DNA of 64,000 nucleotides from Spironucleus salmonicida. Taxonomy: Eukaryota. The notes beneath the pieces were generated by a model. That model was not told where the DNA came from. It was given only the letters and a program-made list of their open reading frames with translations, and searched no databases. Numbering within the stretch: the stretch's first letter is position 1; every line of letters begins with the position of its first letter. Positions 6,619 to 51,433 of the stretch are shown piece by piece. Where the stretch lies: NCBI RefSeq assembly GCF_000497125.1, contig NC_090601.1, positions 1,240,001 through 1,304,000 of the forward strand, written 5' to 3'. The position numbers and the translations under genes are program-made.

Positions 6619-8061
6619 ATGAACGTATCAATCGGCTTATTGGGCCACGTCGATTCGGGAAAAACAGCACTAGCCCGTGCCCTTTCAACGACGCTATCCA
6701 CTGCTGCACTTGACAAGCATCCAGAATCGCAGCGGCGTGGTATTACGCTCGACATCGGAATCTCACAATTCGATATGGAGGATTTCCACATAACGGTAGT
6801 AGACTGCCCTGGGCACGCATCTTTCCTAAAAACTGTTTTAGCTGGAGCGTCGATCATACAGGCCCTCCTGCTGCTTGTGGACCTCTCAAAAGGGCCTTAA
6901 ATCCAGACGGTCGAGGCGCTCATCATCGCAGAAGCGCTGGGTCTACCTGTTCTGGCAGTGCTAAACAAGGCGGACCTACACGCAGATAACGCCTAGAAAA
7001 CGCAGCAGAGCATCGAGGCGCTGGCAGCGAAGATAGGGCTCAAAAATATCGCCTTTTGCACAGCAGCAGCTGCCAAAAGCGAAGTTTCCGAAGTTAAAAT
7101 CGCACTGCTCGAGCTGCTGAATGGCATGAAAGACAGCGTCCTAGCACTCTACGCGCAGCTGAAGACACGCCCGCTGTTATTAAACTTCGACCACACGTTC
7201 CCACAGAAAGCAGGCACCATCCTCACGGGGACGCTCATCTAGGGCGTCCTGTCACCTGGAACGCTGGTACAGATCTCCCCGGGTTCCACGATCCACAATG
7301 GCGTTTTCACTTCTTTTCCAATCAAATCTATCCAGAAATTCAAAAAAGGAGTAGAAACCGCCTTTCCGGGCGACCGCGTGGGGGTTCAGATTGCAGGTGT
7401 GCAGGTACCGTCTGAGCGCGGGATTTTGTGCCAGAGCATGACCAAAATTCGCACCGTTTATGCGACCATCCGCATGCTCAAAAGCTACAAAAACGGAGTT
7501 TCAATGGGGCAGATTTTCAGCGTGAACCTGGGGGCTCTGCAGGTCAAGGCGCGTTTATTCGTGGCCGGGGTCGTTAAAAAGAAGATGATGAATAAAATGC
7601 TGGATAACGCATATAAGCCGAAGTAAGAATTCGACGGAATTATCATTTTTGAAGAAGAAATTGACTTTGTAGATTCTGGGAAAATTCTTGGTGTTCGCAC
7701 GGATTTCTGCGCTAAAACCAACCAGAGCACCAGTAGGATCGCGTTTGTGGGGTAAATTTGCAGTGTCAGCGCCTAGATTGTGAGTTCGATTTAATACGAG
7801 TAGGATAGAAAGTACACTTGTGTTATTGACAAAGTGGTTGGGGGGAAGCTTGTTATTAAGAAAATTGATGGAATTGGTGAGAAAACTGCGGTTGGAATGA
7901 CTGTGTATTAGGGGTCCAAAGAGGTAGGTGTAGTTGAGAGGGAGTTTGGGCAAGGGAAGTGGAAAGCTGATATCACAGAAGAGTATAATAGTGTTATTTA
8001 GGAAGAAATATGGATTGGAGAGAGTGTTTTGGCCGAATGGAAAACAGGGTTTGAGCAATGA
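6619..8061 (+). CDS. EEFSEC: Selenocysteine-specific translation elongation factor (eEFSec/SelB), 480 aa
   Basis: MNVSIGLLGHVDSGKTALARALS..LDKHPESQRRGITLDIG, VDCPGHASFLKTVLAGASII, LNKAD, FDHTF..AGTILTGT, C-terminal GVVEREFGQGKWK. These are eukaryotic eEFSec signatures rather than EF1A. Confidence 0.92.
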
Positions 8062-43731: not shown

Positions 43732-43833
<102 letters not shown>

Positions 43834-46800: not shown

Positions 46801-47014
46801 TACTCTAATTTATACAAGAAATGAGGAAATTGAAGAAAAGAATTTACCTAGTTTAAGAGTTACTAGGAACTGTAGTGGTGAACGAAAAGTTCTTACTAGG
46901 GTGTGTTTATTTGATAGTTAAACTGAGCGAAAATCGACAATAAGACATAGTGGATTTGACTACTTAGAGCCAGTAGGAGCGACAATAAATAAGTTAAGGG
47001 GAAAGTCTAAGTGA
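43874..47014 (+). CDS. Large coiled-coil protein, 1046 aa
   Basis: MFTSPIPTYDTELALLSQ...KLRGKSK*; ORF-track 44264-44599 and 46736-46921 are in the same frame. Confidence 0.85.
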
Positions 47015-47833: not shown

Positions 47834-48085
47834 ATGACAGATAAGACAGATTTTGCTATAAGAACTAATATTGACACAATGCATTTTATGCGTGATTCAT
47901 TGTCATAGGAACTGGAAATACGCATGAATGCATATTTTGCTTTAAAACGTCACTATAGAGATTTAAAGAACGAGGAAGCTTTATTATCGTACCACTCCAA
48001 AAATAATCTTTGGCCTATTTTTACATTCATATGTGCCCTTATTCTCGCTTGTATTGTTGTGATATATAAAATAACTTCATCGTGA
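47834..48085 (+). CDS. Small tail-anchored protein, 83 aa
   Basis: MTDKTDFAIRTNIDTMHFMRDSLSQELE..NLWPIFTFICALILACIVVIYKITSS*; C-rich motif just upstream. Confidence 0.6.
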
Positions 48086-48108
48086 TTTCAGTTTCCTTTC
48101 ACTTTTCC

Positions 48109-48215
48109 ATTCCTTTGCTTCTCAGCCGGAGCGGTGGAAAGATGAAGCTAACGCTGATTCCTTTTGTAGCTGAGTCTATAAATCACCTTTTTACGAATTC
48201 CGAAATTTTTAGTAC
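48109..48215 (+). ncRNA. Candidate structured ncRNA (k-turn hairpin plus Sm-like site; U4-like)
   Basis: Nested pairings CTCAGC/GCTGAG, CGGAG/TTTTG, GGAA/TTCC, tandem GA/GA, AGC/GCT; AATTTTTAG at 48204-48212. Boundaries and identity uncertain. Confidence 0.4.
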
Positions 48216-48229
48216 TCAAATATCTATAT

Positions 48230-49801
48230 TCACTACAGTTCCTATAACCATTCTTAGATTTATTCAATACATTAACTATTTCTCACCCCATCTTTGTGCA
48301 TTGTATTTTAACTTATATAATACTACGTATTTGGAACGTCATCAGCTGATTAGCTTGTGGCTGTGACTGAGCCATCGCCGTCTCCATATATTGGAATAGG
48401 TATTCTATTCATAATTTCCTAGTAGTCATAGATCGGTTGTGAATAGTAACAAGAAACAGGAGTAGGTATTCCTGTACAAATTATTGATTTATGTATATAA
48501 TCTAATGGATAGCTTATTTCTTTCTTTCGTGCGAAGTAATGGGCATCATACAATTCTTTATTTATACCGAATACAAGACTTTCAATAGTTTTTTCAGGGG
48601 TTAAATTGTCGTATAAATCTAGTAAAGAATACTGTTTTGCAATCCAAGGCACATTGTTAGATTTATTTATATAGCAATCATTCATAAATTTATTATATGT
48701 GGATGTTATAATATTTAGGTTTGGGGTAATTTGGTTTCGAAATTCTGGATATTTATATTTTTCGGATGGCCCCCACATGATGAATTGCTCCCATTCCCAT
48801 AACTCATCTTTTATAAACACTAGATTATCATGAATTATAGGCTTAAAAAATTCAGAGTCAGTTACATGTAAACTATGGTGATAACTTAAATGTCTGCATG
48901 GTAGAATGTATGGTATTTTTATTCTTGTAGGAAATCTACTTTTGAATCTAGATATCCAATATTAGATATCATACTAAACTGATTCAGGATGTTTTTTAAT
49001 GTATTACAAAATTTGTAATAATGCTGAATTAGGGTCATTGTTAACTATTTAAACTTTTAACCATAGACCAATGTTCTCAGTCTATTTATATTTTGGTTAC
49101 TTATATTTAATTTTTTTAATGTACACACATTAAGTAATTTTAGAATTATCTGGGGAAGGAAGTAATGCAGCTGTCATTCCAGATTAAGCCCAGATCATTC
49201 TAGTAGCATCCTCTAGAAATTTATTATTAAAATCATATCCAGCTGTTGGTACAAGTAGCCCCAAACCATTTATACCATCAAAAGGAACACAAACTGATAT
49301 TACTTTTTAAAATTATTTGTACCAATTTGGCCGTAAATGTTAATAATACTTTACTACTAACCCACCCATTGAATGTGCTAAGATAATCGGACTCTTTGGG
49401 ATATCTTACAGGTATTGATCGAATCTATCTAGTTATTATTCTGATAATAATGTTTATCTAAAATCATAAGTGTAAATAAACAATGACTTACCTTCAACGT
49501 AACCCATTTTTAATAGCTTTTTTATTAAGATATCAAAATAGTCTAGTTACGTAACGCCAAGCCATTTAGCTAATTTAGAATGCATTAATCTATCAATTGC
49601 TTTAATACCAACTTCTGGGACAATATGTGCTCCAGTCCAAGAGTTAAATTTAAACTCCTTATCTATATAACCACCTAGGTAATTAATTAATAGTTTCTTC
49701 CATTTCATAATCTAATATGTCCTGTCAACTGCCCAAACAGCTTAATGTTCGTTTCTTAGAATGTTCCCAAAAATTCCAGGAATGATAATTAATGGTTTCA
49801 T
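48230..49801 (-). CDS. LCAT/phospholipase A-family alpha/beta hydrolase, 523 aa
   Basis: PLIIIPGIFGNIL, GYVEGKSLFIYTYDFR, ILAHSMGGL, VPFDG, GDGDGSV. Confidence 0.92.
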
Positions 49802-50250: not shown

Positions 50251-51237
50251 TCAATCACTCATTTCAAATACTTCACCAAATTTCAATGCATCTAATGCAG
50301 GGGTTTCGAACATACTAGGCCGAGATCCTCTTAAATCAGGAGAGTTAAAGACAACAATATTGTCTAACATATCAGAAGGGCGTAATATAGCAGACCGTAG
50401 AGCTGCCTAAGGAGAGATTGTATTTAATTAATTGTCTATGTAATGGAGATCTAAAGGACCTTAAATACTTTTAAATTAATAAATAACCTTCTCTTAGAGT
50501 CTAGGATGCTCCGTATTAGATTATAAATTACACTGTTTAGTTTCTAACTTATCTAAAATACAGTGTCCTGATACTATAAATAAGTTTGGTAATGCAGAAT
50601 TGGCATTTGTTTTGTTGAAGTAAATTTCGCAACCTCTGCATAATTCTTCATAATCTAAATATTAATCTCCTTTCATAAGTATTTACTTTTTCTCATCTAG
50701 TTCATTAAGAAGTAATTATTTTCGCTTCGCAAGGAATTTAAGTTTTTCTTTTTGGTCATTTTCAGCTGATATATGCTTTCGTTATCTTTTAGGTAACGGT
50801 GGAGCGGGTAATAAATCTGTGCTTTGAGGAATATTAAGATCTGTTTTTCTTCCAAATTTCTTTAAAAACTCTGCATTATTGCCGATAAAATTAGAGTTTC
50901 TAGTATGTTATGGTACAAAATTGAATGCACCAACTCGACAGCCAATCCAAATTATATTTATTTTTGTAGACTAAATAAGCCCCATAGCTTCTAATGGCCC
51001 AGTAACATCATATAACCTACGTTTGTTAGTAATTTTTAAAATATCTTCCTTTCCTATACATACTTCACCATCTTTTGTGCGAGCTGAAGACTATGCAATC
51101 TCAATTATTATTCTTCTAGCTAAATCAACTGATCTTGTTTTAGAATCAGCTAACATGCACTATGCATTAATTGGAGGTTATGGTAGTATATGCTCATTAT
51201 GATCATTAGTTTATGGTAAAGGTGTATTTCCAAACAT
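50251..51237 (-). CDS. E2F: E2F transcription factor (single DBD), 328 aa
   Basis: NKRRLYDVTGPLEAMGLIQSTKINIIWIG, then a coiled coil and YLDYEEL (marked-box-like); acidic C-terminus. Confidence 0.82.
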
Positions 51238-51433
51238 TAAGATTTTGAAGTGGAATTATAATATTTTGTATATTAAGGTATTATAATATACTAATACTAA
51301 TTTTATATGCTAATTTATAATATAATATTTATTAATTTATTACTTAACTCTATTTAATTCTTTAATATTATTCATATTGAATAATAGATAATACATGTAT
51401 TGACTTTAAAACTCATGTAAAATAAACATATAA

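Follow-up and report, generated by a model that had tools for sequence, protein, structure and literature searches.

The stretch of Spironucleus salmonicida DNA analyzed here (the window, 64,000 nucleotides) reads with genetic code 6, its sole stop codon being TGA. The element under study sits in a 144-nt gap between two convergent stops, an arrangement that an earlier note on this DNA had pointed out and that we find as described, with the plus-strand frame ending at 48085 and the stop of the minus-strand gene lying at 48230:

47834..48085, plus strand: 83-aa open reading frame (ORF), the upstream neighbor, with a TGA stop at 48083-85 and no Pfam match.
48230..49801, minus strand: LCAT-family gene (PF02450, E 1.9e-10), the convergent downstream neighbor, with its stop at 48230-32.

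The proteins of both neighbors are present in the protein collection. The GC-richer island reported by the earlier note is also there (51% GC in 48117-48177 versus 30% and 25% in the flanks), and the element occurs once in the genome. Polyadenylation in S. salmonicida occurs ~14 nt past the stop (PMC3916229), which should leave about 48100-48216 without mRNA. Scanning for tRNA genes detected none in the window or at the U6, U2, and U5 loci discussed below. Elsewhere in the window are a gene for a SelB-like selenocysteine elongation factor (6619-8061, plus strand, 40 kb from the element; top match TIGR00475, 158.8 bits, under the cut-off of 242), one for an E2F/DP winged-helix protein (50251-51240, minus strand; PF02319, E 3e-6), and a long trinucleotide repeat (about 43740-43830), upstream of a coiled-coil gene ending at 47014, that reads as an Ile or Leu run in open frames.

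A long hairpin with a kink-turn (k-turn) and an Sm-like site had been drawn in this gap, and from it a divergent U4 snRNA or another Snu13-binding RNA had been proposed. The motifs lie at the positions claimed: CTCAGC at 48121-26 and GCTGAG at 48169-74, CGGAG at 48127-31 and TTTTG at 48162-66, GGAA at 48136-39 facing TTCC at 48158-61, the bulge AGAT at 48140-43, GA at 48144-45 and 48156-57, AGC-TAAC-GCT at 48146-55, TCCTTTGC from 48111, and AATTTTTAG at 48204-12. The hairpin built from them stood in part: it is the minimum-energy fold if 48118-48178 is folded alone, but a longer RNA prefers a hairpin at 48110-48138 plus a selenocysteine insertion sequence (SECIS)-like arm. Its CTCAGC/GCTGAG and CGGAG/TTTTG helices are absent from our working fold, where those bases pair with U6. 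The candidate U4 parts run in the order stem II, k-turn stem-loop, stem I, single-stranded stretch, and U-rich site:

48117..48215, plus strand: predicted U4 snRNA, about 96-100 nt, both ends being predicted.
48117..48134, plus strand: U4/U6 stem II strand, with 16 contiguous base pairs at 48119-48134 and 17 of 18 from 48117.
48136..48161, plus strand: 5′ stem-loop with k-turn, comprising a 4-bp C stem, 4-nt bulge, tandem GA, 3-bp NC stem, and UAAC loop.
48166..48177, plus strand: stem I strand in the preferred register A, GU-GCUGA-UCU with two single-base bulges, pairing with U6 AGAUCAGCAC.
48153..48167, plus strand: stem I in the alternative register B, GCUGAUU plus UUUUGU, 7+6 bp.
48178..48203, plus strand: central stretch, unstructured, with no predicted fold (0.0 kcal/mol).
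48204..48212, plus strand: Sm-like site AAUUUUUAG, with A where the consensus has G after the U run.

A U4 in this gap requires a complementary U6 somewhere in the genome. The U6 candidate came from the fourth search, three prior searches (two with patterns, one with the Rfam U6 model) having been unsuccessful. A pattern with an exact ACAGAG box gave eight matches (two for the control) without stem II complementarity on inspection, among them L003, which has a U6-like look without pairing to the candidate. A pattern taken from the register of the earlier note, the complement of TCCTTTGC, gave five matches (control, one), judged by matched text only. The successful pattern assumed that stem II ends just 5′ of the k-turn hairpin and sought the complement behind TCAGC; it produced 14 genome matches versus six for the control, one of them on the minus strand of another chromosome:

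G000:C5:393416-393250 (L043 1636-1470), minus strand: predicted U6 snRNA, with the ACAAAG box from 393308 and one match each in the successful pattern search and in the U4-blind search below.

This sequence reads ACAAAGA-AGAUC-AGC-A, then CCUGC-UCC / GGA-AC-GCAGG around a 6-nt loop. Its features outside the search pattern are ACAAAGAAGA directly upstream, six more complementary bases, and a 5+3-bp internal stem-loop. The ACAAAGA box agrees with ACAGAGA at six of seven positions, at the usual spacing from GAUC-AGC, and is one change away from a box described as invariant; the U6 of Cyanidioschyzon merolae has the variant ACUGAGA (PMC10158995). From these features the G000:C5 sequence appears to be the U6 snRNA that the earlier note had suggested searching for. 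The U6-pairing 5′ segment, formerly put at 48109-48126, is corrected by it to 48117-48134, and in that register the caveat that the implied U6 stem-loop was not evident disappears.

The promoter motif and the U6 box are separated by 108 nt of GC-rich sequence (L043 1636-1528, minus strand), whose first bases, GUUGAC, could pair with a later GUCAAC, and a GACUG/CAGUC hairpin follows. This region, which has no tRNA and no Rfam match, may be a long U6 5′ domain or a separate co-transcribed RNA; U6 with the long 5′ region folds no better than shuffles (z 0.38). No four-T run directly follows U6, and the Trichomonas U6 promoter is of the polymerase III type (PMC5762654). Just downstream of U6 is a gene for a La-type RRM protein with an arginine/aspartate-rich tail (L043 525-1196, minus strand; PF08777, E 5e-18), an adjacency that may be chance.

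A U6 search blind to U4, designed after the G000:C5 find, combined the U6 box with U2-derived GAUY-AGCA, allowing one mismatch, and returned six matches at five distinct loci (control, two). Only the G000:C5 locus has the stem-loop (-11.3 kcal/mol versus -1.7 to -4.3 elsewhere) and the 16-bp pairing with candidate U4 (6-10 bp elsewhere), whereas its 7-bp helix with the U2 5′ end is unremarkable among these loci (6-10 bp). The reciprocal search from U6 found two places, the U4 locus and C2:505082, the latter at a reading-frame end, and none in the control. A duplex-energy scan of the U6 segment over 11,328 sequence windows, a circular test of little weight, ranked the U4 locus as the best non-self partner (-45.0, the next being -42.7). 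In a narrow Rfam scan of the candidate U6, Giardia U6 (RF02494) was the top of four matches at 23.9 bits (E 0.0022), far below the gathering score of 100 bits. Neither a scan of 351 nt around this locus nor the Rfam U6 model run over the genome detected it as U6, the latter giving 13 weak matches, none above cut-off. The Rfam U2 model run over the genome missed the known U2, so Rfam genome searches are insensitive here.

Pairing of at least 16 contiguous base pairs was seen in none of 15,222 genomic 38-mers (best 15) and none of 20,000 shuffles (best 14). The stem II pair probability is 0.83-1.0 for 14 of the 16 pairs and 0.2 for the last two, and the dimer is computed at -51.9 kcal/mol versus -19.7 and -17.4 for the free RNAs, a net gain of about 15 kcal/mol. 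The Giardia U4 and U6 sequences were taken from the supplement of PMC3510501, and pair changes were counted by eye. The 5′ end of Giardia WB U4 aligns without gaps to 48117-48134 with 11 of 18 positions identical (by eye), and Giardia U4 pairs with the same 18 U6 positions, that is, in the same register. All seven U4 differences face a U6 difference; six of them re-pair (five Watson-Crick, one G-U), and one leaves a C-A mismatch. Two further U6 differences are tolerated (G-U to G-C and U-A to U-G), so that the 18 pairs comprise nine unchanged, six with two-sided and two with one-sided changes, and one broken. The covariation that the earlier note had proposed looking for is therefore present in stem II, against one other genus (Giardia WB), and at the level of sequence it is evidence of homology independent of the search, from one outgroup. 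Metagenomes gave no match to a pattern of U6 plus stem-loop, and a looser pattern matched at least 119 loci; among the matches listed none pairs over more than 11 bp with the candidate, and we take them as chance. These metagenome searches yielded no closer relative than Giardia.

With a complementary U6 in the genome and a pairing that covaries with the Giardia U4/U6 pair, the main proposal of the earlier note, a divergent U4, holds up: the gap at 48086-48229 very probably encodes the U4 snRNA of S. salmonicida, and the locus is, with little doubt, the single-copy gene of the major-spliceosome U4, a divergent member of the family. Its primary sequence is too divergent for the Rfam U4 model. 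The Rfam check of U4, U3, and SECIS models suggested earlier came back without a match at any scale tried (the window, 801 nt, and 126 nt); U4, U4atac, and Giardia U4 were not found at E<=10, the only matches being chance-level ones to IRES_Bip, sR28, and 7SK. This lack of a U4 match, a fold stability at chance level (z-score -1.21, with 21 of 200 shuffles as stable), and the trial of several patterns before one worked would suit intergenic DNA that is not transcribed, or overlapping UTRs, in which the complementarity is accidental. We consider that highly improbable, as features that do not depend on the pattern coincide (the U6 box, the stem-loop, the U2 helices, and the Giardia U6 match), as do the same-register covariation, the position of the k-turn, and the promoter motif.

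Box C/D snoRNAs have terminal RUGAUGA and CUGA boxes and a 10-21-nt guide before D or D′, and guide RNAs are known to carry 10-21 nt antisense to U6. A box C/D snoRNA, scaRNA, or other Snu13-binding guide targeting U6 could thus account for the complementarity, and the element has AUGA and CUGA motifs and a weak match to snoRNA sR28 (7.1 bits versus a cut-off of 39). Nevertheless, AUGA and CUGA are just 8 nt apart, RUGAUGA is absent, and the antisense segment is upstream of the C-like motif rather than before a D box. Its target in U6 is precisely the segment with which Giardia U4 pairs, in the same register, and downstream come a second stretch able to pair with U6 and a U-rich site, which makes a guide RNA very unlikely.

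Upstream of the element, where a promoter-like tract had been noticed, lies an 11-nt C-rich motif shared with U2 and U6:

48107..48117, plus strand: C-rich promoter-type motif CCATTCCTTTG, 11 nt, its last G being 48117.

CCATTCCTTTG directly precedes U4 and U2, and the variant CCACTTCTTTG precedes U6. The motif fits the text description of an 11-nt C-rich promoter motif in S. salmonicida (PMC3916229). The pattern has 67 genome matches versus 15 for the reversed control, and the ATG of an ORF of at least 60 aa follows within 12 nt at 27 of the 65 other sites, several of which are repeat copies. A search for U1 behind these 65 sites found no U1-type 5′ end. The earlier note had also recognized a U4-like 5′ end. 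TCCTTTG is there, but it belongs to the promoter-type motif of U2, U6, and many mRNAs, so its resemblance to the 5′ ends of yeast and human U4 is probably in part coincidence. The published 5′ RACE product of S. vortens Rps15 starts at the end of a similar tract, and the first G of Giardia U4 aligns with G48117; for these reasons the U4 5′ end is most likely near G48117. An alternative start at A48109 would permit seven more pairs.

In its part order and similar lengths the predicted RNA resembles Giardia lamblia U4 as described by Hudson et al. 2012 (PMC3510501). Common to both, taking the preferred fold, are a stem II strand of 18 nt that begins with a 5′ G, a short linker, a k-turn stem-loop, a stem I strand starting GU, an unstructured stretch, and a U-rich 3′ site with no terminal stem-loop. 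The Spironucleus RNA differs from that description in its 4-nt bulge (3 nt in Giardia), its 4-bp C stem (6 bp), bulges in stem I, for which a second register is possible, a length about 15 nt shorter, and a C-rich motif upstream in place of an AT-rich tract. In the preferred fold, stem II, the k-turn, a stem I GCU pairing with U6 AGC, and a U-rich, Sm-like site are shared with human, plant, and oomycete U4; the Spironucleus RNA differs from these in having no predicted 3′ stem-loop, either before the Sm-like site or after it. AAUUUUUAG departs once from the Sm-site consensus RAU4-6GR (PMC6679479), and 580,322 strand-bases contain 68 such motifs. The U5 of this genome has AAUUUUUGG as its Sm-type site. 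The candidate U6 shares with Giardia U6 (RF02494) the AGCACC junction and the 5+3-bp stem-loop with a 2-nt bulge and 6-nt loop, in which two pairs are changed on both sides. It has ACAAAGA rather than ACAGAGA, 108 nt between its promoter motif and the box (in Giardia, about 12 nt from the U6 start to the box), and, unlike Giardia U6, no long 3′ stem-loop.

For S. salmonicida, Hudson et al. 2019 (PMC6679479) identified U2 and U5, reporting that U1, U4, and U6 "escaped detection"; their covariance-model searches also missed U4. A 20-nt piece of the published U2 has one exact match in the genome, and with this U2 the candidate U6 forms helix Ia (4/4), helix Ib (4/4), and a helix II of 7 bp plus 5 bp. 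The extra 5 bp involve U2 bases that immediately precede its published start, and U2 (L053, G000:C3:71121-71280) therefore probably starts 1-3 nt upstream of that point; the additional UGGUC pairs with U6 GACCA. U5 is present in two identical inverted copies ~6.4 kb apart (L021/L022: G000:C6:884550 plus, 890972 minus), one locus being listed in PMC6679479. Counted by eye, the six U6 bases up to ACA could match the four known 5′ splice sites over 6, 6, 5, and 5 bp. The spliceosome of S. salmonicida is kept for four introns, and its 44 of 174 spliceosomal proteins are the fewest of the species surveyed in PMC6679479. Listed as present are 15.5K, 200K (Brr2), Prp8, and 100K; according to the published list 61K (Prp31), 60K, 90K, and 110K were not found; Prp3, Prp4, and SART3/Prp24 are likewise among the partners not found.

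Transcription of the predicted U4 would be driven on the plus strand by the C-rich promoter motif, and the RNA would be capped; its 3′ U-rich site would bind the Sm ring, and its k-turn Snu13/15.5K, for which 48136-48161 is the presumed site. U4 keeps U6 inactive until Brr2 unwinding (PMC10158995). By computed complementarity, stem II would open the internal stem-loop of U6, and stem I would cover the U6 AGAUC-AGC segment that later pairs with U2, so holding U6 inactive; by computation, neither the U6 stem-loop nor U2/U6 helix I can coexist with U4/U6 pairing. By the established mechanism, Brr2, for which 48178-48203 may be the loading site, would unwind U4/U6, and U6 would fold its stem-loop and pair with U2 and the 5′ splice site.

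The k-turn hairpin starts 1 nt past stem II, between stems II and I, and has the 4-nt bulge about which the earlier note had cautioned. With a descriptor written to admit such a bulge, three k-turn hairpins were found in 580,322 strand-bases of other S. salmonicida DNA. Energy models credit neither k-turns nor Snu13. In the protein-free ensemble the k-turn probability is low (0.01-0.33; C-stem pairs, 0.01-0.02). Because GCUGA occurs twice in U4, stem I has two registers, with options of 7-10 bp each. Register A keeps the k-turn and forms 8-10 bp (-43.7 to -43.9 kcal/mol for the three-way-junction models A, A2, and A3). Register B would disrupt the k-turn and mask the U6 ACAAAG box as well (-42.0 and -42.9 kcal/mol for models B+ and B2+). 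In the unconstrained protein-free ensemble neither register dominates, and the SECIS-like arm has a probability of 0.47.

A U4 with a vestigial k-turn, in which stem I uses the upstream GCUGA copy (48153-59) and continues across the ACAAAG box of U6, is an unlikely variant of the fold, compatible with U4 identity, that would leave the 5′ stem-loop as a plain 17-nt loop. Register B lies within 1-2 kcal/mol of A with an unbulged 7-bp stem I, its pair probability is higher (0.15-0.20 versus 0.06-0.08), and Prp31, which binds the k-turn/Snu13 module, was not found in S. salmonicida. Yet register A is slightly lower in energy although the model gives no credit for the k-turn or Snu13, a k-turn hairpin seldom arises by chance and this one, like its Giardia counterpart, fills precisely the interval from one stem to the other, and Giardia U4 retains its k-turn though 61K is missing there too. 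We prefer register A on the grounds that the layout of Giardia U4, k-turn included, is the same and that the species has 15.5K.

The SECIS-like arm had been noted before as an alternative fold, SECIS-core-like without the apical AA. The core is there, AUGA-AGCUA / UAGCU-GA being part of the minimum-energy fold of the free RNA, with a helix of 5-7 bp; helix II of a SECIS has 11-13 bp. A SECIS role, with the arm belonging to the 3′ UTR of the 83-aa gene upstream and the TGA of that gene read as selenocysteine, would also fit the Sec machinery of the species, for which no canonical SECIS is known, and the SelB-like gene in the window. But the helix is too short, the apical AA is missing, no Rfam SECIS model matches, and the 16-bp U6 match would be left unexplained. 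Moreover, the upstream protein is catalogued as 83 aa without a Pfam match and is not SelW-like, the account in PMC3916229 reporting three selenoproteins only, all of them SelW paralogues; a promoter motif lies between the ORF stop and the element, and poly(A) usually falls ~14 nt past the stop. The SECIS reading is thus unsupported and extremely unlikely.

In the literature searched, which covered few subscription journals and theses, we found no report of a Spironucleus U4 or U6, and a prior report is possible; the main texts of PMC9509377 and PMC11787283 do not contain the term "snRNA," nor that of PMC10158995 "Spironucleus." A joint reading of the locus and its partners, which we consider unlikely, is of a near protein-free U4/U6 particle with a U4 register switch, a U6 with an mRNA-type promoter, and possibly U1-free intron recognition. 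If it is true, U4 would alternate between a k-turn folded with Snu13 and an unfolded state masking the 5′-splice-site box of U6, a switch that would go with the missing Prp31, Prp3, Prp4, and Prp24, and U6 would have a ~100-nt extra 5′ domain and an ACAAAGA box. As U6 could form 5-6 bp with each of the four known 5′ splice sites, it may recognize introns without U1, as has been proposed for Cyanidioschyzon merolae (PMC10158995). Apart from this joint reading, and judging from sequence, ACAAAGA would be a natural variant of the U6 ACAGAGA box, and U4 and its k-turn would persist without detectable Prp31, Prp3, or Prp4. Added to the published U2 and U5, U4 and U6 would allow the RNA core of one of the most reduced spliceosomes to be drawn and tested, with only U1 left, and their sequences would serve as seeds for U4/U6 searches in other hexamitid diplomonads.
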